Positions 572 to 43,049 of a stretch of 44,601 nucleotides of DNA are shown here, piece by piece; the stretch's first letter is position 1, and every line of letters begins with the position of its first letter. The notes below the pieces were generated by a model. That model worked only from the letters and a program-made list of their open reading frames with translations, was not told where the DNA came from and did not search any database. The position numbers and the translations under genes were made by a program. Origin of the DNA: a virus (taxonomy: Duplodnaviria > Heunggongvirae > Uroviricota > Caudoviricetes); IMG/VR virus record IMGVR_UViG_2711768005_000013, one strand, 5' to 3'.

Positions 572-3500
572 TCAACGAATACTGATGCCGGAAGCCGCTT
601 TTTTGGTCACAATCACCGTACAGTCGGTGATATTGCCTGCCCCCTGATTGCCTTTCTGGAAAATCTTAAACTCCAGAGTGACGCTACCACCACCACTAGG
701 CATATCAATAACTGCACTGTAACTACCGGGAATGGCCCCTTTAGTTTCTCTGGATGCGATTAATACGCCGTTTTTGCGAACTTCAAAACCATAACCCGTG
801 TATCGCGTGCCTCCTGGGTTATTTCCGCTCCCCGGATCGTCATACGCTATACCGTTAAAAATAATGGGCGGAATAATAATCTGGCGGTCAAAGTTATGAT
901 CATCGCTGATGGTGACTGTAACCGTACCGTCTGGTGTTTCCGTGTTACCCCACGTACCGACTTTTTTCGGGAAGGCTTTTGATACAGCTTTAACGAAATC
1001 CCCTCTGACCTGGGTCGCCTCCAGCATGCCCTTAATCGTACAGTTCTGGTTAATCGTGACATTGTTGAGCGTTCCTGAGTTCGCATTCACACTACCACTG
1101 ATATCCGCATTTTTAGCGGTCAGCTTTCCGTCTGATGTCAGGGAAAATACCGGAGGACTGCCACCGCTGGTAATGGCGGGGGCTGTCAGGCGCTTCAGGA
1201 ACACGTCGTTCATGAATATCTGGTTGCCCTGCGCCACAAACATCGGCGTTTCATTCCCGTTTGCCGGGTCAATAAACGCGATACGGTTAGCGGCAACCAG
1301 AAACTGGCTCAGTTTGCCTTCCTCCGTGTCCTCCATGCTGAGGCCAATACCCGCGACATAATGTTTGCCGTCTTTGGTCTGCTCAATTTTGACGCCCCAC
1401 ATCGCATTCCATTTATCGTTAGCGTCCTTCCACTCTTTCGAAAACTCATCCAGTCTGCTGGCGTTATCCTCCGTCAGATCAACTTTTTCCAGCAGCTCTT
1501 TACCGAGATGGGATTCGGTTATCTTGCCTTTGAAAAAATCCAGGTAACCTTCCGCATCATCGCTCGCCCGACCGACGGCCTCCACGAATGCCGATTTGCC
1601 AACGGTGTTCACACTGCGGATATAAAAGTAATAATCATGGCCCGGTTTGATATTGATACTGGCGGCTATCCAGTACAGCCCCGCGCCAAGGTAGCGGGCT
1701 GTGGTTTCAACCTGCCTGATATCGGTAATCCGCGTTTCCGAGAACCAGAACTCAAACTGTACCGTCGGATCATAAACCGCAAGATGCGGCGTGGCAGTTA
1801 TCTGAAAATAGCCCGGCGTCAGCTCAATCCGCGACGGTGCTACCGGTGCGGCAATCCTGAACGATACCGACGCCGGATCGCCCTGCTGTCCCCAGGCATT
1901 TACCGCCCGGACTGTCAGCGTGTACCGTCCCAGCGCCAGTTGCGTGAAGCGGTATGTGGTTTCCGTCGTCCGGGCCGTGCTGACCAGCCGCTCACTGCCG
2001 TCATCCGCTGCCACGGTCAGGCGAAGCATAAAGCTCACCCCCTTCACCACCTTCGGCGTGTCCCAGCGCGCCAGCACCTGATATTCCCCGCTGTCTGCGG
2101 TGACTTCGGCAGTCAGGTGCTGCACCGCTGGCGGCGTGACACCATTCACCGTGCCGCTCTGGTCGCCGTCAAAGTGCGCCCCGTTATCCACGATGGCTTC
2201 TTTTTCCGGTACATGCTGCACGGCAGTGATGGCATACGTGCCGTCATCGTTCTCACGGATACTCACACAGCGGAACAGGCGCTGGCGCAACGTCGGCAGC
2301 TTCAGCCCCCACACGCTGTATTCAGCAACGCCGTCAGGAACACGGCTCACTTTCACCTTCACGCCGTCGGTGACGGACTGAACCTCCACGCTGACCGGAT
2401 TGCCACTTCCGTCAACCAGGCTTATCAGCATGGTACCGGAGGATGGCAGCGTGATTTCACGGTCGAGCGTCAGCGTCCGGGTCTGGCTGTTTACCGCCAG
2501 CACGCGCCCGCCGATGCTGATACCCGCATAGTCATCATCACAGATTTCAATGACATCGCCCGGCACATGGCGAAGCCCTTCTGCGCCCACGCTGAAGTCC
2601 ACGGTCTGCGTTTCCAGCAGTTCTGTTTTAATCAGCCACAGCCCGGCGCGGTGTGCCTGCCCCCGGCNNNNNNNNNNNNNNNNNNNNNNNNNNNNNNNNN
2701 NNNNNNNNNNNNNNNNNNNNNNNNNNNNNNNNNNNNNNNNNNNNNNNNNNNNNNNNNNNNNNNNNNNNNNNNNNNNNNNNNNNNNNNNNNNNNNNNNNNN
2801 NNNNNNNNNNNNNNNNNNNNNNNNNNNNNNNNNNNNNNNNNNNNNNNNNNNNNNNNNNNNNNNNNNNNNNNNNNNNNNNNNNNNNNNNNNNNNNNNNNNN
2901 NNNNNNNNNNNNNNNNNNNNNNNNNNNNNNNNNNNNNNNNNNNNNNNNNNNNNNNNNNNNNNNNACAGCGCATCGCCGAGCAGAAATCACTGAGCACATC
3001 CCACGCCTTGCGCTGTGTGGTCAGGTACGCATTACAGGTGATGCGCGGCTCCGTGCCGCCAAAGCCGTCCGGCACTGACTGGTCGCAGTACTGGCCGATG
3101 ACATACAGCGCCCATTTGTCCACATCCGCCGCACCAAGACGTTTCCCCATGCCGTAGCGCGGGTGGGTCAGCATATCCCACAGACACCAGGCCATGTTGT
3201 TGCTGTATGCTGGTTTTAACGTTCCGTCCCAGATACCGCTGTATTGTCGCGTCTGCGGGTTATAGTTCGACGGCACCTGCAGAATGCGCCCGCGAAGATG
3301 ATAATTACGACTCACCTGCTGGCTGCCGAACTGCTCCGAGTCCACCTGTACGCCGACCAGTGCAGTGTTCGGGTAGCACTGTTTCACATCGATGATTTCG
3401 GTGTATGACGACCAGAGCGTTTTGTTCTGCAGCTGGTCTGTGGTGCTGTCCGGTGTCATCCTGCGCATCCGGATACTGAACGGGCGCGGAGGCAGGTTAT

Positions 3501-5362: not shown

Positions 5363-6061
5363 TTACTGCGAAAGTTTGTTAATGGAAAGGAAGCCGCCAA
5401 AGTTGCCGACGTTATTGCGGAACTTACAACCGCTCAGGCATTTGCTGCATTTATCCTTCGTGATATCGGACGTTGGCTGGTCATATTCATCCGCGACAGC
5501 CGGACCGTGATAACCGCACTCATCACCGCGATAGGTCCAGGTGCAGGTATTAGCAAGCATGATGCGCCCCGGAAAAACAGCGCCGTCCGTTTCCGTCGGC
5601 GTGGACAGTACAAAGGAGGCACTGACCGCGCTCAGTTCGCTGCACTGCTCAATACGCCAGCGGCTGATCACCTCCTGCTCCGGATCGGCGTCACTGTTTC
5701 CGTTGACGAAGTTCACCGCATCCAGAAAACGGGCGTAAACCTTACGCCTGACCACCGTTCCGCCGACCAGACTCTGCAGGTCTTCCGCCATCCCGGTGAC
5801 CATGCCGTGCAGATTAGAGACTTTCAGCGTTGGCCTTGCACTGGCACCTTTGCCGTTCATCTCAAATCCACTCCCCTGAATGGGATAGGCCTGATACTGC
5901 CGACTCTGCCAGGTGACAGACTCTCCTTTCTCGTTCTGCTCATTGCAGAAAAAGTAGCGATCCCCGCCTACCTCGGTCAGGTCGATTTCCCAGAGCACCA
6001 CGCTGGCCGACTGCTCCGCACGAATGCATTCATTCAGCGTTTCCTGTTGTATGTCCTGCAT
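5363..6061 (-). CDS. L: Minor tail protein L
   Basis: 232 aa, position and size as lambda L; C-terminal Cys cluster (CSKCLSGC). Confidence 0.8.
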   Translation of the reverse strand: MQDIQQETLNECIRAEQSASVVLWEIDLTEVGGDRYFFCNEQNEKGESVTWQSRQYQAYPIQGSGFEMNGKGASARPTLKVSNLHGMVTGMAEDLQSLVGGTVVRRKVYARFLDAVNFVNGNSDADPEQEVISRWRIEQCSELSAVSASFVLSTPTETDGAVFPGRIMLANTCTWTYRGDECGYHGPAVADEYDQPTSDITKDKCSKCLSGCKFRNNVGNFGGFLSINKLSQ

Positions 6062-6399: not shown

Positions 6400-9300
6400 T
6401 TAACATTCCCCCATCACGTCGCATATTTAACAGATTGCCCTGCACCCGCTGATCAACCATCCCCATAAGTGCTTTTATTGCCTGAGGGCCAATCTCTCCA
6501 TTCTGGCCGTCATTTTGAATAGTGATTTGGTATACAGGGGCATAGGTAATATCTCCGCCTCCATTACCACTTTTACTATTAATAGCTCTGACACCAAGAG
6601 AACCATCGGAAGTTCGTGTTAATGGCATAATGGCTTCCGGTCCAGCCTCACCAAAAACACCAGCCCCTTTTGCAAAAGCAAAAAATTGCGGGGAATCATA
6701 AATACCGTTCGAATACGTGCTCAATGACGGAGACTCATAAACACCGCCCTTTGCATTCGGAATAAATTTACTAATAGCACTCCCGATAGTTCCTAAAATC
6801 CCCCCAGAAGAACTGTTACTAATGCTGTCGAAAATCCCAGTAATTGAAGCCTTTAATGCTATTCGACTAAGATCCGAAATCACGGAAGTAGCGAAAGAAC
6901 GAAAATTTGCCTTGCCTGTCGTGACAAAATCACCCAGCGCATCGGTCATCCCATCAAACATCTGAGTCGTGGTTGATTTTATCTGCTCACTGATATCCTT
7001 AGTGTCATCCAGCCAGTTATTGAATCCCTGGGAGGCACCACTAACCCAGTCTCCTGCCTGAATATCGAGCTGCTCGTTTTTCTGTCTGACAATTTCTTTT
7101 TCCCGTTCCAGAGCATCATTCAGAGCCTGCATTTTCTCTTGAAAAACATGATCTGACATTCCACGGGATTTATCTGCATAGTCACGTTCAAGTTGCAGAC
7201 GCTGATTGTTATATCCATGTTCAATCCGCAGTAATTCCTGCTGGCGTTGCTGATTTTTATCGCCAACCCCATAACCAGCAATCTGAATATCATACCCCTG
7301 CTGACGATTATCAATCGAAGCCTGCAATGAATCACGCCATGCTGTTATTTCGGCGGATTCCTTGATTAGCCTGTTATTTTTTTCAATCGCAACATTTTTC
7401 TCCATCAACGTGGTTATTTCTTCCCGGTGTAAGAGAAGCGATTTCTGATCCTGGGTTAATTTCGATGATGGTCGTGACTCTAGGTCGGCAATCCGCTGAC
7501 GCCACTTAACCAGTTCCTGTTCAGAGGAACTTAATTTAACGGTCAACTCAGCTTGTGAACTTAGTAACGCATTCTGTTGATTCAGATGATCAATCATTCG
7601 TTGGGCTGCATCATCAGAATAACCTTTCGCCTTTGGTTGCTTTGGATCTTTATAACGCTCATTTATTTGAGCGATAAGATTATTATATTCTTCCTTTGAA
7701 TACTGATTCTTTAGCTTTTCCAGTTTTGCAAGTTCACTAGCTCTCTGCTGCTCCCGGGTCTGATATTGTTTTGAAAAGGCATCTGCTCTCTGTCTGAGTT
7801 CAATTCCTTCCTGTTGTCGCTTGTTGTAATCGTTTATTGATGAATTTAGTACGTCCTGAGCAATTTTTTCTGCTTGAAGTACGCCCAATTGCTGCTTTAA
7901 TCGTGCCAGCCTTTTATTTTGAGCTCCGCCATCTCCAATGCCACCTAACCCGAAAACTCCGGGTCGGGTATTTTTTTCTATTTCATCAATTTGACGGAGA
8001 ACATCTGAGATTTTTTGATCAAGGGAGGCCTCACGGCCAATATCCAGCATGGAATCCCATGCCCATTTTGCGGAGTCTGCGACAGCTTTCCATGCAGTCT
8101 CAAGATAACCAAGATTTTCTTTAATCTGGTTGGTGCGCTGGATCATTGAGGATGAGTATTCTTCTGTCGCAATGCGGGCGGCCTCCTGCTGGTTCCCTTC
8201 ATCCTGTAGCGCCTTAATCTGGTTATAAGTCGCAAGTGTCAGAAAATGGTACTGATCATTAAGTTTTGATATGGCACTGACAGGATCCTTTGCAATTTCA
8301 TTGAAGTCATTAACCAGTTGTTCGGTTGATATTCCTGTTACTTCGCTCGTTTTTACTATCGCTGTCGTCACTTGCTCCAGCGAACTGCTCGCTACCTTTC
8401 CCGAACGCACAAGCTGATTTAATACTGCCGCCGCAGCACCAGTTGTCGAATCAGCCGCATTCCCGGCACGTTGAGCTATATCGCCCAATTGCCCGCTGGT
8501 TGTCCCCAACTGATTTCCGGTAAGAATAAGAGATTTATTAAATTCGTCCTGCTCCTGAGAGCCTTTATAGTAAGCCAGTCCTAAGACCCCAACGGCTGCT
8601 GCGGCCAGGGTAAAAGGATTAATTAATCCCAGCACATAAGAACCTACACCTTTGATCGCCGGGCCAATCCCACCGAACATATCTTTTAGCTGGCCGCCCT
8701 GCTGCATTAACACCATAAATGGCGACTGACCAGTGGACAACCCAACAACAATATCCGTCATTTGTACAGGCAACATGCGCATAGCAAAAGCCGTTTGTTT
8801 TGCCGACATTCCGGTTTTGCTTAATTGTGATTGAGTAACCTCAAGCTCACTCCGCATAGCACGAAGTTTTCCAGAAAGCTCCTCATACATTTCAGGAGAA
8901 AGCATCCCCTTAGCTTTTGCTTCATTGAGCTGTTTCTGTTGTTCTACCAGACGATTAAAAGCAGTTCCGACAGGATCAAGTTGAGCAATCAGACGTTGCA
9001 AAGCAACAACCTGTTCATCATGCGCTTTTGCTGCTTCTCGCTCTGCCTGAGCCTCTCCGGTAAGCTCTCGCCGTGTTTCCTGTATTTTTCGGCTATAATT
9101 CTCAAACTGAGAACCATTTATTTTCCCGGATGCAAACGCAGCATTAAGTTCATCATGCTGTTGTTCAAGATTTCTTAGCGCCGCAGCCAGAGGGTCGATC
9201 TTGTCCAGCATTCTTTGAAAGGCCTGAGCCTGCGCTTCCTGCTGGGCGGCAGCAAGTTTTCCGGCCTTCTCGGCTTCTCTCTGCGCTTGCGCAACCCCGC

Positions 9301-22398: not shown

Positions 22399-23856
22399 TT
22401 AGGAGCGCCAAAAAAAACCTGAAAACAATATAATAACAGGATAAATTTCAAGGCGACCAAGAATCATAGCTATGCACATTAAATATTTTGCAATGTCATT
22501 AAGCACTCCGAATGACGATGCAGTAGCCCCAAAACCTAATCCCATATTATTAATACATGCAGCCACTGTTGCAAATGATGTAAGAAAATCATATCCCATA
22601 CCATTTAACACCAGTATAAAAAACACCGTGAAGAGAGTATAAAGAAAAAAGAAACTCCATACAGACCTCATTACACGATCTGTAACTATCTTCCCTCCTA
22701 CATTTACACTCAACAACGCTCTGGGATGAGAAAGCTGATTTATCTCGTGTTTGCTTTGTTTGAAAAGTATAAGAAATCGAAGTGACTTAATTCCACCACA
22801 GGTTGAACCTATACATCCCCCAAAGAAACTTGACAACAGCAAAAACACTATCGTGTGCGTGGGCCAGTTTGCATAATCCTGCGTAGCTAAACCATTATCA
22901 GTGAGCATGGAGCTGGCAAGAAAAAACGAATGAATAAAACTTCCATGCAAGTCATACATACCTATATGCCAGACCTGGAAAGAGGTAACAATGATCACCC
23001 CTAAGGCTATTAACAGAAAGAAACGAAGTTCAATATCTCTGATTAAAGGTTTTATCGTTTTTCTGCTAATAACAATATACCAAAGAGTGAAGTTGAAAGC
23101 CGATAGCAGGGAAAAAGAACCAGCCACCAGCTCAACCAAATAGTTATTAAAATATCCGATACTCTCGCTATGAGTTGAGAAACCACCAAGCGAAACTGTG
23201 GAAATCCCGTGACAAATAGCATCAAACAAAGGCATTCCTGCAAGTCTATAACAGACAATACAAGCAATACCTAATAAAGAATAAGTTATCCACAGTGTCC
23301 GTGACGTATCGGCCAGGCGGGGAGTGAGTTTGTCATCCTTAAATGGCCCCGGCATTTCTGACTGATAAAGCTTTGCACCACCAATACCCAATAATGGCAA
23401 TACTGCAACCGCCAGAACAATAACTCCTAAACCACCTATAAAATTTAACTGTGACCGATAGTACAAATATGCCCGAGGTAATGAACTAACATCATCAATT
23501 ACAGTTGCTCCTGTTGTTGTTATTCCAGAAACCCCTTCAAACAGAGCATCAATGAACGTTAAATTAAGTTCTGAGTCAATCCATAAAGGGAATGCACTAA
23601 TAACAGAAAACAAAATCCAAAACATTACAATTATAATAAACCCATCACGGGTACGTAATTGAATGCCAGATTTCTTAGTTGTATACCACGCTCCGCCACC
23701 AATGCAAAAAAATATAACGAAAGTTATAAAGAAAACGAACAGGCTTTTTTCTTTATAAAACAATGCTACAACCATTGGTGGCAACATTGAAAGACTATAG
23801 AGCCAAACCAGGAACCCACACATATGAGTAACAACTCTTACATGAGATGTATTCAT
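22399..23856 (-). CDS. trkG: Trk-system K+ uptake protein TrkG
   Basis: 485 aa from ATG at 23854-23856 (MNTSHVRVVTHMCGFLVWLY), multi-pass membrane protein with TrkH-family GxTTTGATV motif; visibly AT-rich. Confidence 0.9.
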   Translation of the reverse strand: MNTSHVRVVTHMCGFLVWLYSLSMLPPMVVALFYKEKSLFVFFITFVIFFCIGGGAWYTTKKSGIQLRTRDGFIIIVMFWILFSVISAFPLWIDSELNLTFIDALFEGVSGITTTGATVIDDVSSLPRAYLYYRSQLNFIGGLGVIVLAVAVLPLLGIGGAKLYQSEMPGPFKDDKLTPRLADTSRTLWITYSLLGIACIVCYRLAGMPLFDAICHGISTVSLGGFSTHSESIGYFNNYLVELVAGSFSLLSAFNFTLWYIVISRKTIKPLIRDIELRFFLLIALGVIIVTSFQVWHIGMYDLHGSFIHSFFLASSMLTDNGLATQDYANWPTHTIVFLLLSSFFGGCIGSTCGGIKSLRFLILFKQSKHEINQLSHPRALLSVNVGGKIVTDRVMRSVWSFFFLYTLFTVFFILVLNGMGYDFLTSFATVAACINNMGLGFGATASSFGVLNDIAKYLMCIAMILGRLEIYPVIILFSGFFWRS

Positions 23857-23993
23857 ATCTAAATATTCTTTCAATTATAACCACCTTGCTGCAATATTAT
23901 GATTATACTGTATAAAATTTAACTCCTCTTAGATCTTACTTCACTGTTCCTTATGAAACAATCATCAAAATGAATCATATTGTAGTTAAGATT

Positions 23994-24458
23994 TTACTTT
24001 AAACACTGCTCGGTTATGTATTGCTGAGCACCTTCAAGTTGGGCCTGCATCATTACCAGTCGTTCCCGGAGGGTGAAATAATCCCGTTCAGCGGTGTCTG
24101 CCAGTCGGGGGGAGGCTGCATTATCCACGCCGGAGGCGGTGGTGGCTTCACGCACTGACTGACAGACTGCTTTGATGTGCAACCGACGACGACCAGCGGC
24201 AACATCATCACGCAGAGCATCATTTTCAGCTTTCGCATCAGCTAACTCCTTCGTGTATTTTGCATCGAGCGCAGCAACATCACGCTGACGCATCTGCATG
24301 TCAGTAATTGCCGCGTTCGCCAGCTTCAGTTCTCTGGCATTTTTGTCGCGCTGGGCTTTGTAGGTAATGGCGTTATCACGGTAATGATTAACAGCCCATG
24401 ACAGGCAGACGATGATGCAGATAACCAGAGCGGAGATAATCGCGGTTACTCTGTTCAT
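23994..24458 (-). CDS. rzpR: Spanin inner-membrane subunit (Rz)
   Basis: N-terminal TM segment then coiled-coil; final gene of the lysis cassette; contains embedded Rz1 frame. Confidence 0.8.
24053..24238 (-). CDS. rzoR: Spanin outer-membrane lipoprotein subunit (Rz1), embedded in Rz in an alternative frame
   Basis: 61 aa with lipobox LVVVGC and Pro-rich mature region ([15 protein letters not shown]). Confidence 0.75.
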
Positions 24459-24946
24459 TGCTGACCCCACAAACAGATTTCACGCTCAATCTCACGACGA
24501 GTCATGAGACCTTTCCATTGCTTACCGCCAGCATATGTCCAGCGACGTAGCTGATCACATGCGCCTTTGATATCGCCCTGGTTTATTTTGCGANNNNNNN
24601 NNNNNNNNNNNNNNNNNNNNNNNNNNNNNNNNNNNNNNNNNNNNNNNNNNNNNNNNNNNNNNNNNNNNNNNNNNNNNNNNNNNNNNNNNNNNNNNNNNNN
24701 NNNNNNNNNNNNNNNNNNNNNNNNNNNNNNNNNNNNNNNNNNNNNNNNNNNNNNNNNNNNNNNNNNNNNNNNNNNNNNNNNNNNNNNNNNNNNNNNNNNN
24801 NNNNNNNNNNNNNNNNNNNNNNNNNNNNNNNNNNNNNNNNNNNCCAGACCATCGTTACCACTTGGGCCAGTGATTAACACTGATGCTATAGCAATTGCTC
24901 CGCCACCAATAGCAGCAGCAACGACTTTTCGTAATGATGGAGGCAT
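24455..24946 (-). CDS. SAR endolysin (phage 21 R-type lysozyme), interrupted by an N run
   Basis: N-terminus [34 protein letters not shown] (signal-anchor-release domain) and C-terminus [38 protein letters not shown] match the phage 21 lysozyme. Confidence 0.85.
24595..24843. other. Run of N inside the endolysin gene
   Basis: Contiguous n characters. Confidence 1.
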
Positions 24947-25161
24947 TATTCACCTCTCGCAGCCTTGCGCTTATCTTCTTTAATCTTGAAATAAAGGTTT
25001 GTCAGGTACGTCAGCAGGCCAAATACCAGACTACCCAGCACACCGATTGCAGCCCACTGTGACGGAGTTACTCTATCGAGCAACTGTAAAAACCAGTAGC
25101 CAGCACTGCCTGCGGAGGTGCCGTAGGCAATGCCTGTTGAAATTTTGTCCATGGATTTCAT
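24946..25161 (-). CDS. S21-type pinholin with dual start (Met1/Met4)
   Basis: [45 protein letters not shown]... closely matches phage 21 S; GGAGGTG SD 7 nt upstream; ATG codons at 25159-25161 and 25150-25152. Confidence 0.8.
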
Positions 25162-25264
25162 AGCCTCACCTCCGCACGGAACGGATGGCATAGTTATTAT
25201 GTGTAGGCTTTCAGACACATCAATCAGAGCCTTAATTGATATATATGCTGGAGACGATGCAATA

Positions 25265-25287
25265 TAAAAAGCTCGCCGTAGCGAGCT
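25265..25287 (-). terminator. Intrinsic terminator downstream of the lipoprotein pair
   Basis: Minus-strand hairpin AGCTCGC-TACG-GCGAGCT followed by TTTTTA. Confidence 0.45.
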
Positions 25288-25412
25288 AATAAAATGTATT
25301 TCTCTGATATTATGTTTATTTGTATTAGCTCAGACTTGACATCACAGGTTTCGTATATAGAACATCATCAAATCTGTCAGTTTGCTATGAATGAGATATA
25401 GTAATTGAAGAG

Positions 25413-25808
25413 CTAACCTCGCATGTCAAAGCCAGATTTCTGAAAATCTCTGTAGACTTCCGGATTGTTGAAGGCCGGAAATTTGGCTTTATGAGCTGCG
25501 GACTTTATCGCTTCGCAATAGGCTTTATCACCGTTACTGGTAGATATTTTTAACGCCGTGCCATCCTGAGAGAATTCCATATGCAACCTGCATTTTTTCC
25601 CTTTCCAGTTATGCGGCTCATCAAGTTTGGCATTAATTGCAGCTCTGATTCCCCGCGCTTGCGCCCCCCATTCATCCTGATCATCCCAGCGTCCTGAACT
25701 GCAACTACCTGTAGCAGTAGTTTTGTGGCAATCTGAAGGGTGTAAAGGTGTGCATCCCGCAACAAAACCGACCCAAAAAGTCAACATAACGATTTTCTTT
25801 AATCCCAC
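25413..25808 (-). CDS. Lipoprotein with TolA domain III-like C-terminal domain (paralog 2)
   Basis: GTG start with GAGGAG SD 4 nt upstream; signal peptide MGLKKIVMLTFWVGFVAGC with lipobox; C-terminal region aligns in pattern with the E. coli TolA C-terminal domain (GKKCRLHMEF..DG..LKI...GD...C.A...AA..AKFP....EVYRDFQ). Confidence 0.6.
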   Translation of the reverse strand: MGLKKIVMLTFWVGFVAGCTPLHPSDCHKTTATGSCSSGRWDDQDEWGAQARGIRAAINAKLDEPHNWKGKKCRLHMEFSQDGTALKISTSNGDKAYCEAIKSAAHKAKFPAFNNPEVYRDFQKSGFDMRG

Positions 25809-25958
25809 TTCTTGCTCCTCAATCCATTAAAATCTCAGCAATAGTAGTTGTTACGTCCGCCACTGGCTCAGAGCTGACTATCCGCTAAATTTAGCTCAGT
25901 GCCGTAGCTGTGTCAGAACAAACCTAAGCCGAAACCGTTTATTACAAAACAATAAATA

Positions 25959-26387
25959 TCAGGGTTTAAAATCCAGCACCCCATTTTGAAATACTTTATA
26001 TACTTCCGGCGAAGGGGGGGCAGGTATATCAGCATTCTTTATCGCATTCATCGCTTCACGACATAAATCGAGGTCTCCACTTTCTCTTTTAACCTCCAGT
26101 AGAAGGCCATTCGGGGCCATATGCATTCTCAGTGTACACTCTTTTCCTGAATACTTACTCGCATCCCCGAACTGTTTTTCGATGGCGCTCTTGATTTGAT
26201 GGGCATACAGACGGATATCCTCACTAACATCAGAAGTACGTTCAGATGAACTCACATACTGTGTCTCTATTGCTTTATCGGAGTAATATGATGTACGGTC
26301 ATGATAATTTGTCGATACAGCATCAGTGCACCCGATAATAATCCCACTAATAATCAACGTAAGAATTGATGCGCTACGAAAACCCAT
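25959..26387 (-). CDS. Lipoprotein with TolA domain III-like C-terminal domain (paralog 1)
   Basis: GAGGA SD before ATG; signal peptide with lipobox IIGC; C-terminus YAHQIKSAIEKQFGDASKYSGKECTLRMHMAPNGLLLEVKRESGDLDLCREAMNAIKNADIPAPPSPEVYKVFQNGVLDFKP closely resembles the TolA C-terminal domain as I recall it. Confidence 0.7.
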   Translation of the reverse strand: MGFRSASILTLIISGIIIGCTDAVSTNYHDRTSYYSDKAIETQYVSSSERTSDVSEDIRLYAHQIKSAIEKQFGDASKYSGKECTLRMHMAPNGLLLEVKRESGDLDLCREAMNAIKNADIPAPPSPEVYKVFQNGVLDFKP

Positions 26388-26416
26388 TTTTCCTCACATA
26401 TGTCATATAGTAAAGG

Positions 26417-26446
26417 ATTATATATACCGTTGTTTTGGACGCTCAA
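26417..26446 (-). promoter_or_regulatory. Candidate sigma70 promoter for the lipoprotein pair
   Basis: Minus strand TTGAGC - 18 nt - TATAAT about 30 nt upstream of the lipoprotein-1 ATG. Confidence 0.35.
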
Positions 26447-26976
26447 ACAGCGAATCAGATCAAATAAAACGCACATTTGTTAACATTTACACAAAGTCTG
26501 CGTGGGATATTCTGAAAGAATATCCATAATGTGGAGAGAATCTATTGAAGTGCATGGTGCCGGGTGCCTCCCGGTGAACAAAATGTTCGTGATACCTGTC
26601 GGCGACAGAAAAGGTTAATGGTATCACCCCACCGCACAGGGGGATTCACCATGCAGGAGTTTTCTTAGCAAACTCACTGCGCGCCCGGCAACTCCCAACC
26701 ACATAAAATGCGGAGTTTGTGGCATTTATGCATATAACTCGCAGGAATTATCTTAAAAAACTGATGTCGATCCGGATTAAAAAGAAGCAGGTCATCATCA
26801 GATGACTGGAAAAAAGGAAAACAAAAAATACTCATCATACAGTTTTGATTGCAGGGATGAGCCTGCTATGCACAATATGCAGAATATAAGCAAGATAAAA
26901 ATATGCAGGCATATTATTTCGGATCTTGTTATTAACACAACCTTTTTAATAATCATTTGGCATACAATAAACCAGC

Positions 26977-27004
26977 CCAAAAAGAACCGCCTAAACAGGC
27001 GGTT
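26977..27004 (-). terminator. Intrinsic terminator in the Q-to-lysis intergenic region
   Basis: Minus-strand hairpin AACCGCCT-GTTT-AGGCGGTT followed by CTTTTTGGG. Confidence 0.45.
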
Positions 27005-27323
27005 GGTCAATACAAAGGATGCTTCGTCTTTATTATAGTAATCTGAGGCGTCGGGTGTCTTGTATCAGACAACATATTGTCCCGCTAAACAGCGAATTAC
27101 AAACCACCCTGCAATGATCTCTCATCTCATTTTATATGAGTTGACGACATCAGGATAACGCATCATCAGCCCCTGCCAAGAAATATCAAAACTCCCGCCA
27201 GCAATGTGTTATCACAATATTGTAAAAAAAACACAGCACCGAAACTATAACTGGTCTCTGTTATAATTTGGAGCAGAAAGACCAGTTGCCCAACTAGCAG
27301 CATTCTCCCCTGCTTTCCTGACG

Positions 27324-27351
27324 TAAAAAAACCGCATTAAGCGGTTTTTTT
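27324..27351. terminator. Perfect palindromic bidirectional terminator about 80 bp downstream of Q
   Basis: AAAAAAACCGC-ATTAA-GCGGTTTTTTT: stem flanked by A-run and T-run, so a U-tract follows the hairpin on either strand. Confidence 0.55.
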
Positions 27352-27431
27352 ACGATGTCCATGTCTGCAATCCGCCTCGCGATACAGCTTTGCGAAGCAT
27401 AGCAAAATTGAAGCAGTTTATACGTAAGAAA

Positions 27432-27974
27432 TCAAGCCATTTTCTCAGCAAATGATTCACGCATGGGAATATATAGGGCATACTCAGCAACAGCTAACCA
27501 ATTAGCAATCCGTTTTTCGCATGTGCTAAAACACCACTCTGGGTGTGCATCATTTAGCAATTCAGCCATTTTGCGCTTAGTCATCCCCCGCCCTTCATAG
27601 CGTTGCCGGAGAATGCAAATCAATCCTGGATGCTCTGCCAGCACCTCACTTATGACTCGATCAATACATAACGCCTCTGCATCAGTACAATGCGCCAGCC
27701 AGCTCTTTTGCTTGCCGTTGATCATCTCTCGCAAAAACGCTTCCAGCTCAGCTTTCTCTATTCCCGCTTTTTTCATTCTGCGCAGGGCTTCATTAATGGC
27801 TGTTTTCGTCAGTTTTTTGGATGCCAACAACTGATTGAACATATTCCCTGACCTGCCACCGCCAATATACGACCAGCGCCCCCACATACGTAGTTTTCCC
27901 TGAATCCAGACACTTTCCAGCGTGGTGAGGCGAAGGTGTTCTCCGCTTTTTCCTGTATTCGTTGGGTAAATCAT
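27432..27974 (-). CDS. Q-like late antiterminator
   Basis: 180 aa in the Q position (between nin-type genes and the lysis cassette) with LRMWGRWSYIGGG segment resembling Q-family proteins. Confidence 0.55.
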   Translation of the reverse strand: MIYPTNTGKSGEHLRLTTLESVWIQGKLRMWGRWSYIGGGRSGNMFNQLLASKKLTKTAINEALRRMKKAGIEKAELEAFLREMINGKQKSWLAHCTDAEALCIDRVISEVLAEHPGLICILRQRYEGRGMTKRKMAELLNDAHPEWCFSTCEKRIANWLAVAEYALYIPMRESFAEKMA

Positions 27975-28261
27975 AAATGACCTTTCTTTCTCCAGATTTC
28001 TTGTGTGCGAAAAACCCCTTCAGCATGCATCAGGCGCAATTCTTCTTTGGTGTAATCGCTGGTTTTTACCCGCCCGTCGATTAGATCGTGGCATGAGCTA
28101 CAGGCTATCGCCGCCTGCATATCATGTGGTTTTGTCGCTGTTCCGCACGTCCCCGCCAGCCTGTAATGCGCCAGCACAGAGGTTTCGGGATTGTGATTGC
28201 AGTAGCCAGGGATTCTGATCTGGCACATCTGGCCTTTAGCCGCTTTACGTAAATTCACCAT
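27971..28261 (-). CDS. DUF1364 / YbcO-like putative nuclease
   Basis: 96 aa, MVNLRKAAKGQMCQIRIPGYCNHNPETSVLAHYRLAGTCGTATKP...CSSCHD; Cys pattern and sequence resemble DLP12 YbcO as recalled. Confidence 0.65.
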   Translation of the reverse strand: MVNLRKAAKGQMCQIRIPGYCNHNPETSVLAHYRLAGTCGTATKPHDMQAAIACSSCHDLIDGRVKTSDYTKEELRLMHAEGVFRTQEIWRKKGHL

Positions 28262-28860
28262 TACGCAAACTCCAGTAGTTGTGCGGCCACATTTTCAACT
28301 TCCTCCTGAGAGGAGAATTTACGGAACAGAATCCAGTTCCACAGCACATTCAGTACAGATTTATAAACCTGCTGAAACTCGACTTCGTCCATATTCGCAA
28401 AAGCGATGGATTTTGCCCGACGCCCACGGCTACCGTCCGGATAAATATGCTCGGTGTAAAATCCGGCCTGAATGGTTACCCACTCGCGGAAAGCCTCAAA
28501 CGACTTTAGCAACGCCGTATCCCGGGTTCTACGAGTCGCAACGGTGTTAAGGTATTGCTCTGCGGCATCACTCAGGGCTGGCGTGTGTTCCCGACCAACT
28601 GATTCGCACAGGTAATCAACGAAACCAGACAGCAGTTCTCGTTCGCGAGGCGTGATCGCCCCACCGACCGGAGTCCAGTAATCGAATCCCAGTTGCAGGA
28701 GTTTGAAAAAACGCTTGTGGAATGCGTAGTTACGCACACGCTTAAAGTCTGCGTGTATCCACTCACCTATTTTGATTTGATGCAGAAAATCGCAACTCTC
28801 CGGCGTCGCCGGGAGAAGTAAACCAGAAGAGGTTTGTTTGACCAGTTGTATATGCGCCAT
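28261..28860 (-). CDS. DUF1367 / YbcN-like protein
   Basis: 199 aa starting MAHIQLVKQTSSGLLLPATPE with FEAFREWVTIQAGFY segment; nin-region position. Confidence 0.6.
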   Translation of the reverse strand: MAHIQLVKQTSSGLLLPATPESCDFLHQIKIGEWIHADFKRVRNYAFHKRFFKLLQLGFDYWTPVGGAITPRERELLSGFVDYLCESVGREHTPALSDAAEQYLNTVATRRTRDTALLKSFEAFREWVTIQAGFYTEHIYPDGSRGRRAKSIAFANMDEVEFQQVYKSVLNVLWNWILFRKFSSQEEVENVAAQLLEFA

Positions 28861-29140
28861 TTCTCAATCTCTCGATGGCGCAGCGCAGCAGATGCCAGTT
28901 GTTCAGGCTGACGAATAAAGTATAAATAAACTGGCTATGGTGTAAAGCCCCACATAGCATGAACAAACACTACATATCAAATAGCTGGTACAAGGATAGA
29001 AATACGACACTTATTATTAAAAACGATTAGATAAATTACATTTTAATGTTATGCAAAAGTTCTTTTTTATCATAACATTTCAATAAAAGCATTACAGATG
29101 CAATCATCCCGTCATCATCAATTATTTAAGGTGGTTAAAC

Positions 29141-34026: not shown

Positions 34027-34806
34027 TTACTTCTCAATTCCTGGCTGGACGACATTCGGACGCCAGCTCTCCCAGTTAAAATTCACCCATCGCCCGCCGT
34101 NNNNNNNNNNNNNNNNNNNNNNNNNNNNNNNNNNNNNNNNNNNNNNNNNNNNNNNNNNNNNNNNNNNNNNNNNNNNNNNNNNNNNNNNNNNNNNNNNNNN
34201 NNNNNNNNNNNNNNNNNNNNNNNNNNNNNNNNNNNNNNNNNNNNNNNNNNNNNNNNNNNNNNNNNNNNNNNNNNNNNNNNNNNNNNNNNNNNNNNNNNNN
34301 NNNNNNNNNNNNNNNNNNNNNNNNNNNNNNNNNNNNNNNNNNNNNNNNNNNNNNNNNNNNNNNNNNNNNNNNNNNNNNNNNNNNNNNNNNNNNNNNNNNN
34401 NNNNNNNNNNNNNNNNNNNNNNNNNNNNNNNNNNNNNNNNNNNGATAGCTGCCGCTAAGTGGTTCTTCCCGGTACCAGGTTTTCCGCTGAACGCAAAATT
34501 TGTACACCCGGTCATCAGTTCATCAGCGATGGATTTCGCCTGACTCAACGCGTATCGCTGCGCTTCGTTCTGCACCTGGTAATTCGAAAACGAGCATTTG
34601 CGGTGCAATGGCTGGATGCCAGAGCGATTCAGAATTTTTTCCACCCGCAACTGACGATTCTGACGGTTGATCTCCTCACAACGTTTCTGGCCTTCGGAAA
34701 GTTGCCACTCGCGCCACTCCGCTACCGTCTTGAATGGCGCGGTTACATGTGACGGGGCCAGTCTGCGGATACGTTCAAGAACGTCGCCTGTCGCAATATT
34801 TTTCAT
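34027..34806 (-). CDS. ydaV: DnaC-like replication / helicase loader protein, interrupted by an N run
   Basis: Walker [16 protein letters not shown]; position after ydaU-like gene as in Rac. Confidence 0.7.
34101..34443. other. Run of N inside the DnaC-like gene
   Basis: Contiguous n characters. Confidence 1.
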
Positions 34807-42860: not shown

Positions 42861-43049
42861 ATGTATAAAATTACCGCCACTATTGAAAAGGAAGGTGGCA
42901 CTCCTACTAACTGGACAAGATATTCAAAATCTAAACTAACGAAATCAGAATGCGAAAAAATGCTCTCAGGTAAAAAAGAAGCAGGCGTTTCCAGAGAGCA
43001 GAAAGTAAAACTGATAAATTTTAATTGCGAGAAACTTCAGTCCTCGTGA
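42861..43049 (+). CDS. ydaC: YdaC-like small protein
   Basis: GGAGG SD before ATG 42861 (MYKITATIEKEGG...); alternative in-frame ATG at 42849. Confidence 0.5.
   Translation: MYKITATIEKEGGTPTNWTRYSKSKLTKSECEKMLSGKKEAGVSREQKVKLINFNCEKLQSS

Follow-up and report, generated by a model that had tools for sequence, protein, structure and literature searches.

The 44,601-nucleotide stretch of DNA analysed here (the window; IMG/VR virus record IMGVR_UViG_2711768005_000013, Caudoviricetes) carries two neighbouring minus-strand genes, P1 (25959..26387) and P2 (25413..25808), that lie between a Q-like antiterminator gene and the holin gene of a Rac-type lambdoid prophage. Both encode small predicted lipoproteins that end in domain III of TolA. 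The best-supported explanation, to which we give an even chance, is that the two proteins act as competitive mimics, or decoys, of the C-terminal hub of TolA. The decoy model is consistent with the fold, the lipoprotein signal, the selection acting on the genes, the retention of the β3 strand, the mobility of the genes and their association with defence and bacteriocin genes.

Two predicted lipoproteins with TolA domain III

P1 encodes 142 residues from an ATG start, with the Shine-Dalgarno sequence GAGGA (26391..26395, minus strand) 4 nt before it. P2 encodes 131 residues from a GTG start and has its own GAGGA (25816..25820, minus strand) at a distance of 7 nt. The N-termini of P1, MGFRSASILTLIISGIIIG-C20, and P2, (GTG)MGLKKIVMLTFWVGFVAG-C19, each comprise a positively charged n-region, a hydrophobic core and a lipobox, IIGC in P1 and VAGC in P2. 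The signal peptide and lipobox of P1 (residues 1-20, IIG-C20) occupy 26328..26387 on the minus strand. Both lipoboxes (IIG-C20 and VAG-C19) agree with the pattern [LVI][ASTVI][GAS]C, and lipidation is predicted for both proteins. The residue at +2 is Thr in each case. Asp, which by rule signals avoidance of the Lol pathway, is absent from this position in P1 and P2, as it is in all 56 lipobox-bearing representatives of the family described below. Because no member has Asp at +2, P1, P2 and their relatives are predicted to be sorted to the outer membrane; retention in the inner membrane was considered and rejected. The predicted layout of the mature proteins is thus a lipid-anchoring Cys, a tether of 25-35 residues and a complete TolA domain III.

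Homologues of P2 on plasmids have ATG at the codon equivalent to its GTG, and for this reason we prefer the upstream GTG to the later ATG chosen in the RefSeq/PGAP annotation, which yields 124 residues and truncates the n-region of the signal peptide. The same annotation labels P1 a 'tolA' pseudogene, incomplete and with the N-terminus missing (261 nt).

The TolA domain III of P1 comprises residues 54-142 (25962..26228, minus strand; phmmer, alignment and AlphaFold2 (AF2)) and ends ...VFQNGVLDFKP like TolA itself, while the diverged domain of P2 comprises residues 41-131 (25416..25688, minus strand; phmmer, AF2 and Foldseek). The Pfam model of the TolA C-terminal domain, PF06519, which has a curated gathering score of 25 bits, matches P1 at residues 49-140 (82.6 bits, E-value 2.4e-23) and P2 at residues 44-125 (54.6 bits, E-value 1.3e-14). 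When all PDB chains were searched with phmmer, the matches were E. coli TolA entries only (1S62, 3QDP, 2X9A, 1TOL and full-length cryo-electron microscopy chains), with E-values of 5e-28 for P1 and 5e-9 for P2. Identity to residues 334-421 of E. coli TolA is 59-60% for P1 and ~32% for P2. The Cys pair of the E. coli disulfide (C363/C388) is kept in P1, in P2 and in the close-family alignment, and its equivalents are conserved in 98% of 55 family representatives; the bond itself is predicted.

In the AF2 models the predicted local distance difference test (pLDDT) score exceeds 90 throughout the domain (P1 residues 54-142, P2 residues 41-131) and drops to less than 50 in the signal peptides and tethers. 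With this model score and 60% identity to solved chains, P1 is modelled as the TolA III α/β fold with its three-stranded sheet. Foldseek placed the P2 model on 3QDP (E-value 5e-9, template modelling score 0.92, root mean square deviation 1.1 Å), and the next matches were TolA complexes with g3p and colicin A. The initial annotation, made without database searches, had described two adjacent minus-strand genes, each with its own Shine-Dalgarno sequence, signal peptide and lipobox, and had likened both C-termini to TolA III, the second copy being the more diverged. The genes are present as described, and the formal alignments and the structure comparison that it named as a check bear out the likeness.

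Neither protein is a bona fide TolA. Both are without the N-terminal transmembrane anchor (domain I) and the long helical domain II of the 421-residue TolA, and both score below the cut-off of 213 bits for the TolA equivalog model NF007065 (P1 107.8, P2 53.7 bits). The cut-off of TIGR02794 (59.45) is passed by P1 only (75.6), over model positions 265-362 alone. The two genes also stand outside a tolQ-tolR-tolA-tolB-pal cluster, their neighbours being the Q-like antiterminator gene and the phage lysis genes.

The surfaces through which TolA III meets its ligands are known. Colicin A binds the strand at 375-380, via K368, K379 and K396 (PMC3365938), while g3p-N1 of filamentous phages, colicin N and the N-terminus of TolB share a site made up of the first helix and the C-terminal β3 strand (PMC4339652; PMC7391070). 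Binding of these three at β3 is by backbone β-augmentation, D418P or K420P singly abolishes all three interactions, and the dissociation constants are 1 µM for colicin N and 40 µM for TolB (PMC4339652). Conservation was scored on the 55 family representatives, which are at most 50% identical. The β3 residues F412, K413, N414, L417, D418, F419 and K420 are 55-85% conserved and the helix residues Y340, A341, I344, A347 and I348 are 62-87% conserved; strand and helix together form the best-conserved surface across the family. The family proteins stop exactly at the β3 strand, as does TolA. P1 retains ...LDFKP exactly, plus most of the helix residues, and P2 retains the pattern F-D-M-R-G and D418. 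As judged from these alignments, the β3 site at which TolA III binds its ligands is retained in the family. We take this conservation as supportive and not decisive, because part of it is structural.

Substitution rates were compared as the ratio of nonsynonymous to synonymous rates (dN/dS). In the P2 subfamily (26 sequences, 296 pairs) the median dN is 0.10, dS 0.96 and dN/dS 0.10, with a maximum pairwise value of 0.28. Among P1 variants dN/dS is 0.09-0.35 in the domain and 0.4-0.76 in the tether. The family is under purifying selection, and since dN/dS is well below 1 the RefSeq/PGAP pseudogene call for P1 is wrong. In P2 the mature N-terminus is a Cys-rich segment, C19...W47 (25680..25754, minus strand), that is highly conserved across genera. 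These 25 residues read C-x-PLHPS-x-CHKTTATGSCSSGRWDDQDEWG, with C19, C27 and C36 invariant (two extra Cys). Selection on the segment is tighter than on the TolA fold (dN/dS 0.078 vs 0.117), and pLDDT is below 50 over most of it (residues 1-39).

Cassette borders, distribution and neighbourhoods

Cassette borders were taken from blastn comparison of positions 23000..29000 of the window with related loci. Phage mEp460_ev081, which has a different Q gene, matches 24945..26675 at 97%. A further lambdoid prophage, which shares the Q gene of the window, matches 25958..26764, that is, P1 and an STnc100 element, and the border falls exactly at the stop codon of P1. The IncK2/Z plasmid NZ_CP027324.1 matches the P2 gene and short flanks alone, at 25356..25922 (minus strand); this cassette extent is common to I-complex plasmids, at 82% nucleotide identity. 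Variants of P1 with 91%, 74% and 66% identity stand alone in the Q-to-holin gap of other prophages, behind Q genes of the DUF1133 type or the PF03589 type. Overall identity between P1 and P2 is 27%, and P1 is nearer to E. coli TolA than to P2.

Because of this low identity, and because their homology blocks end independently, P1 and P2 are not tandem duplicates, and a recent tandem duplication is ruled out. The description of the genes as 'tandem paralogous' in the initial annotation has to be given up on these grounds and on that of their different distributions. Its view of them as moron-like cassettes in the gap between Q and holin is sustained by the sequence comparisons: both the discrete borders and the presence or absence between homologous phages by which morons are recognised were found, as was a predicted terminator of the cassette's own. 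At the level of these borders, the comparisons show P1 and P2 to be two independently acquired moron cassettes.

Of 5426 complete E. coli genomes, 775 cover at least 80% of the 1182-bp region that holds both genes, nearly always with an identity of 99% or higher. P1-family genes were counted in 898 of the 5426, on the chromosome in all except three, and 782 E. coli genomes match the P1 sequence itself at 99% identity or above. P1/P2 are also carried by ~125 IMG/VR prophage contigs, near-identical and of the Rac type, and only one of 50,697 deposited phage genomes, that of mEp460_ev081, has either gene. Both genes lie in a prophage; the family as a whole is not specific to phages.

In E. coli and Shigella, ~600 plasmids bear a P2-type gene. 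On the I-complex plasmids examined it follows the relaxase gene nikB, reads in the direction of nikAB and precedes trbC; genes at 88% nucleotide identity are those of IncK2/Z (NZ_CP027324.1, 6005-6400) and IncI1/B/O (locus L002, 6004-6435) plasmids. The IncI1 reference plasmid pESBL is without a P2-type gene, and transposon studies of I-complex plasmids make no mention of one. Chromosomal P2-type genes occur in Citrobacter, Enterobacter, Klebsiella, Leclercia, Raoultella, Kluyvera, Pantoea, Serratia and others, the gene being chromosomal in 24 of 26 species representatives. Its neighbourhood varies in nearly every species (69 neighbour clusters over 22 loci). Copies with a premature stop were seen in Enterobacter quasiroggenkampii (locus L198, 7001-7135) and Leclercia adecarboxylata NCTC13032 (locus L202, 7001-7050); as two species representatives carry disrupted copies, the gene is dispensable in some lineages.

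A family profile search of 1.84 billion cluster representatives (E-value <1e-3) matched 587 proteins. Among the best 150 of these, 79 are 100-190 residues long, and a lipobox is present in 57 of the 79. Nearly all C-termini in the family resemble VFKNAxLDFK(P/L), the β3 strand that also ends TolA. Members from Serratia, Rahnella, Dryocola and Klebsiella carry generic names only, and the PHROG matches were to two families of function-less annotation, PHROG 5772 having E-values of 1.6e-62 for P1 and 6.7e-65 for P2.

Several chromosomal P2-type genes adjoin defence genes or genes resembling them: a fused PARIS AriAB in Klebsiella indica (E-value 1e-180; locus L180, 8320-9948), a PtuA/Toprim-type ATPase gene in Leclercia tamurae (locus L192, 7679-9646), an OLD/AriA/GajA-like ATPase gene in L. 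adecarboxylata (locus L195, 7467-9326), and an NsnA/PD-T4-2-like gene with that of a HEPN protein in Serratia (locus L009, 8957-10736). In Raoultella the neighbour is an integrase gene. On plasmids, tblastn with P1 gave matches in 722, of which 655 are from Klebsiella. The Klebsiella IncR plasmid NZ_CP079134.1 (1-6258) has a TolA-III lipoprotein gene after a thioredoxin-like gene, and Gabija GajA (E-value 2e-217) and a UvrD-like gene lie 3.4 kb away from this locus.

A second plasmid setting is provided by mobilisable ColRNAI plasmids of 10-12 kb in K. pneumoniae, which carry genes for a cloacin-like bacteriocin, for immunity to it and for lysis. Running divergently from these three is a two-gene operon (NZ_CP101570.1, 9153-9886) that encodes a TolA-III lipoprotein (lipobox LTA-C; PF06519, E-value 2e-24) and a partner of 121 residues that combines a signal peptide with a TonB C-terminal domain (PF03544, E-value 9e-11). 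The TonB-type gene is present on 399 plasmids, almost always next to the TolA-type gene. By domain content, the pair is both colicin import hubs side by side. It had no match in PADLOC-DB 2.0 at E-values up to 1e-5. That the CloDF13 reference plasmid carries such genes is denied by the paper that mentions 'TolA' genes of a cloacin plasmid in passing.

Phage If1 uses I pili as its receptor. The complex of If1 g3p N1 with TolA III has been solved (PDB 2X9A) and is among the PDB matches of P1 and P2. The position of the P2-type gene behind nikB would fit a defence against I-pilus-specific filamentous phage.

The decoy model and its alternatives

On the decoy model P1 and P2 would be anchored to the outer membrane in the periplasm, where TolA III normally meets the N-terminus of TolB and where colicin translocation domains and the g3p-N1 of filamentous phages make their first periplasmic appearance. 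They would present a TolA-like groove of β3 strand and helix that is uncoupled from the TolQR motor, so that captured ligands would go nowhere. Candidate ligands are TolA-binding epitopes of the colicin N type, the g3p-N1 of Ff or If1, and the TolB N-terminus as mobilised by TolB-dependent colicins. The lysogen or plasmid host might thereby become tolerant to Tol-dependent bacteriocins, to filamentous phages, or to both. A modest level of decoy could block invaders without a full tol phenotype, because invader epitopes bind at ~1 µM and TolB at ~40 µM, a 40-fold difference. Since both genes lie in the predicted Q-dependent late transcript, P1 and P2 would be made in lytic growth too, and their stacking in Rac-type prophages may widen the range of ligands. 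Seen as mobile-element proteins, P1 and P2 would be entry-blocking lipoproteins built on the TolA III fold. A wider proposal, which we put forward more tentatively and at somewhat below even chance, is that 'import-hub decoys' form a widespread class on mobile elements of Enterobacterales, in which outer-membrane-tethered TolA III, joined on cloacin plasmids by a TonB C-terminal partner, would intercept Tol- or Ton-dependent bacteriocins and pilus-specific filamentous phages. Such proteins would confer a broad tolerance, independent of any one receptor, by mimicry of the host's energy-transducing proteins.

A number of observations weigh against the decoy model. Several helix residues are replaced in P2, for example Y340 by Gln. 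Of the lysines used by colicin A, P1 has His in place of K368 and P2 has lost all three (K368/K379/K396 to Glu/Ser/His); conservation at the colicin A-specific positions is 0.24-0.49 in the family. P1 and P2 had no match in PADLOC-DB 2.0 at E-values up to 1. The P2-type gene of Enterobacter has a stable neighbourhood that does not look mobile, which fits a housekeeping envelope role too, and the promoter-like site of P1 is a consensus match in an AT-rich region. A plain decoy leaves unexplained why in P2 the tether is conserved above the domain. Finally, overexpressed periplasmic TolA III gives leaky cells with periplasmic proteins in the medium, according to the passage of PMC6195910 that cites Wan & Baneyx 1998, and a cost, or a different purpose, is possible on that account.

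The main rival to the decoy model, though an unlikely one, turns this leakiness to the element's benefit. By binding the N-terminus of TolB, P1 and P2 would silence Tol-Pal locally. The outcome, to which we assign the same low probability, would be a looser outer membrane, with leakiness, vesiculation, easier lysis and release of virions or bacteriocin, mainly from the Q-dependent late operon. The place of the genes between Q and holin, inside the late transcript, suits such an envelope modulator, as do the conserved TolB-binding β3 strand, the release of periplasmic proteins by periplasm-directed TolA III in the same account, and the fact that one cloacin plasmid with a family member encodes a release/lysis protein too. 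Help with lysis would, however, be senseless for the chromosomal, conjugative-plasmid and defence-island copies, and the phage already has a complete set of holin, endolysin and Rz/Rz1. The cassette moreover has its own promoter-like site and terminator, the cloacin-plasmid pair is divergent from the cloacin-immunity-lysis operon, and the pairing with a TonB C-terminal domain would be left unexplained.

Less likely than the envelope modulator are the two remaining readings, of which one is improbable and the other very nearly discounted. The proteins might be ordinary accessory envelope proteins of Enterobacteriaceae, with mobile elements as incidental carriers; it is equally improbable that their partner is something other than an invader, such as a peptidoglycan- or porin-associated factor met via the Cys-rich N-terminal segment. 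The predominance of chromosomal P2-type genes (24/26), dS of ~1 between genera with strong purifying selection, the stable locus in the Enterobacter cloacae complex and the greater constraint on the N-terminal segment than on the TolA fold are what such a role would lead one to expect. It accords poorly with neighbourhoods that change by species (69 clusters, 22 loci), with the pseudogenised copies of some strains, with repeated recruitment to prophages, I-complex plasmids, cloacin plasmids and defence islands, and with P1-type genes known from prophages only. That the genes are captured 3' ends of tolA, non-functional remnants as the RefSeq wording 'tolA, incomplete, missing N-terminus' implies, agrees with the PGAP pseudogene mark on P1 and with its score of 107.8 bits against the NF007065 cut-off of 213. 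Yet both genes have unbroken reading frames, and each has a Shine-Dalgarno sequence, a signal peptide and a lipobox of its own. Their dN/dS values lie well under 1, no fewer than 57 clusters, with mutual identities of 50% or less, share the architecture, and 782 E. coli genomes carry P1 at 99% identity or above. By these data on selection and architecture the remnant reading is effectively refuted.

Among known systems, TolA III (TolA 334-421; 1S62, 3QDP, 1TOL, 2X9A) has the fold, the disulfide and the C-terminal β3 strand in common with P1 and P2. TolA differs from them in its transmembrane anchor, without which P1 and P2 have no coupling to TolQR, and in its domain II; they differ from TolA in their lipoprotein signal, predicted outer-membrane anchoring and location on mobile elements outside tolQRA-tolB-pal. 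The tolerance conferred by filamentous-phage g3p/pIII resembles the decoy model in that Tol-dependent entry is blocked by saturating one partner of the TolA III-ligand pair: periplasmic g3p-N1 sequesters TolA, which protects against colicin A and brings phage uptake down by 4 logs (PMC10424213). There the ligand is overproduced and masks the co-receptor, whereas P1 and P2 would be copies of the co-receptor that mop up the ligand, and g3p/pIII has no sequence relation to either protein. Llp of T5 and Cor of phi80, N15 and mEp phages are likewise small phage lipoproteins; they sit in the inner leaflet of the outer membrane and stop entry from its periplasmic face. They bind and plug FhuA, whereas P1 and P2 would mimic a periplasmic host protein. 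No likeness of P1 or P2 to Llp or Cor was found, the Pfam matches at E-values up to 1 being TolA/TonB-type domains and one chance-level But2.

Engineered TolA III or TonB C-terminal domains in the periplasm offer a further parallel, in that a free import-hub domain disturbs the native system. Levengood-Freyermuth et al. reportedly found in 1993 that export of TolA III to the periplasm gives tolerance to group A colicins, and Howard et al. are said to have described in 2001 the inhibition of FhuA and FecA transport by the TonB C-terminal domain. Those constructs are soluble and overexpressed, whereas P1 and P2 are natural, predicted to be lipid-anchored, under selection and carried on mobile elements.

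P1 and P2 are members of PHROG 5772 and of the NCBI group 'cell envelope integrity TolA C-terminal domain-containing protein', bins that are purely computational and function-less. The domain is already known, as is its binning in Pfam, PHROG 5772 and NCBI names. In the full-text literature we found no functional description of TolA-III lipoproteins; their sole mention, a passing one, concerns 'TolA' genes of a cloacin plasmid, and the other hits were TolA reviews or irrelevant, such as 'TolA-like' proteins of eukaryotes. As far as the searchable literature goes, neither the architecture of a stand-alone lipoprotein nor its breadth, its contexts on mobile elements or any function appears to have been described, in keeping with the earlier impression that a TolA-III mimic of this kind was new.

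If P1 and P2 are decoys, they would represent a new mode of defence or competition, in which mimicry of a periplasmic co-receptor takes the place of intracellular immunity or a change of surface receptor. Its carriers would be ~16% of complete E. coli genomes, hundreds of I-complex resistance plasmids and the small cloacin plasmids that are frequent in clinical Klebsiella pneumoniae. Such a mode would help to account for strain differences in tolerance to colicins and klebicins and in susceptibility to filamentous pilus-specific phages, and would bear on bacteriocins or plasmid-dependent phages as proposed antimicrobials. The family would also supply natural variants for dissecting the TolA III surfaces used by TolB, colicins and g3p. 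The listing of P1 as a tolA pseudogene in RefSeq is flagged here as an annotation error.

Setting in the prophage and regulatory sites

The Q-like antiterminator gene of the DUF1133 type occupies 27432..27974 on the minus strand (PF06576, E-value 2.5e-107; PF06530, 26.1 bits vs a cut-off of 26) and is preceded by YbcO and DUF1367 genes. The first lysis gene, encoding a P21-type holin S, lies at 24946..25218 (minus strand; PF04971, E-value 4.5e-35), and downstream of it follow a lysozyme gene, partly masked by N, Rz/Rz1 and then trkG; the RefSeq names are essD, rrrD and lysis protein. The location of P1 and P2 between Q and holin, as first annotated, is thus correct. From the order of Q, lysis genes and trkG, together with the RalA antitoxin small RNA at 42867..43045, we take the element to be a Rac-type lambdoid prophage. 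trkG (22399..23874) stands immediately after Rz/Rz1. The prophage here retains Q, lysis and head genes, which to our knowledge are missing from the Rac remnant of E. coli K-12. There are three N runs in the window, at 2668..2964 (297 bases), 24594..24843 (250) and 34101..34443 (343), the second of which masks the middle of the phage lysozyme gene.

Upstream of P1 a sigma-70 promoter-like site, TTGAGC-18-TATAAT, lies at 26417..26446 on the minus strand and matches the consensus at 10 of 12 positions. The promoter scan gave 11 such sites in 2.7 kb vs 6.4 ± 2.3 in shuffles (~2 standard deviations above), so the promoter is plausible but unproven. The site is kept in four of five related loci: in mEp460 it is unchanged, and two other prophage loci have one change in the -10 element; it is absent upstream of the 66%-identical P1 variant. 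The promoter first proposed thus exists as a motif, at 26446..26417, and as a promoter it is a candidate by consensus match. The hairpin terminator placed downstream is supported by consensus scan and folding: between P2 and the holin gene, at 25270..25287 (minus strand), the hairpin AGCUCGC-UACG-GCGAGCU, followed by UUUUUAUAUU (U5 in the transcript), has a computed energy of -13 kcal/mol and a z-score of -4.35. The G+C content of the cassette is 43-45%, slightly lower than the 47-52% of the neighbouring early-late genes.

Another strong hairpin, flanked by A and U runs (27320..27347, minus strand; -14.4 kcal/mol, z-score -4.5), directly follows the Q-like gene, and ~630 bases without an annotated gene separate it from an STnc100-type RNA element. 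This element, at 26498..26684 (minus strand; Rfam RF02076, 86.6 bits vs a gathering score of 47), is immediately upstream of the P1 cassette. It accompanies P1 elsewhere as well, with up to three repeats around P1 in other prophages, and these repeats may be duplicates of a late leader or borders of moron recombination. In another lambdoid prophage locus (L017) STnc100 copies lie at 5704-5877, 6599-6803 and 6854-7061.

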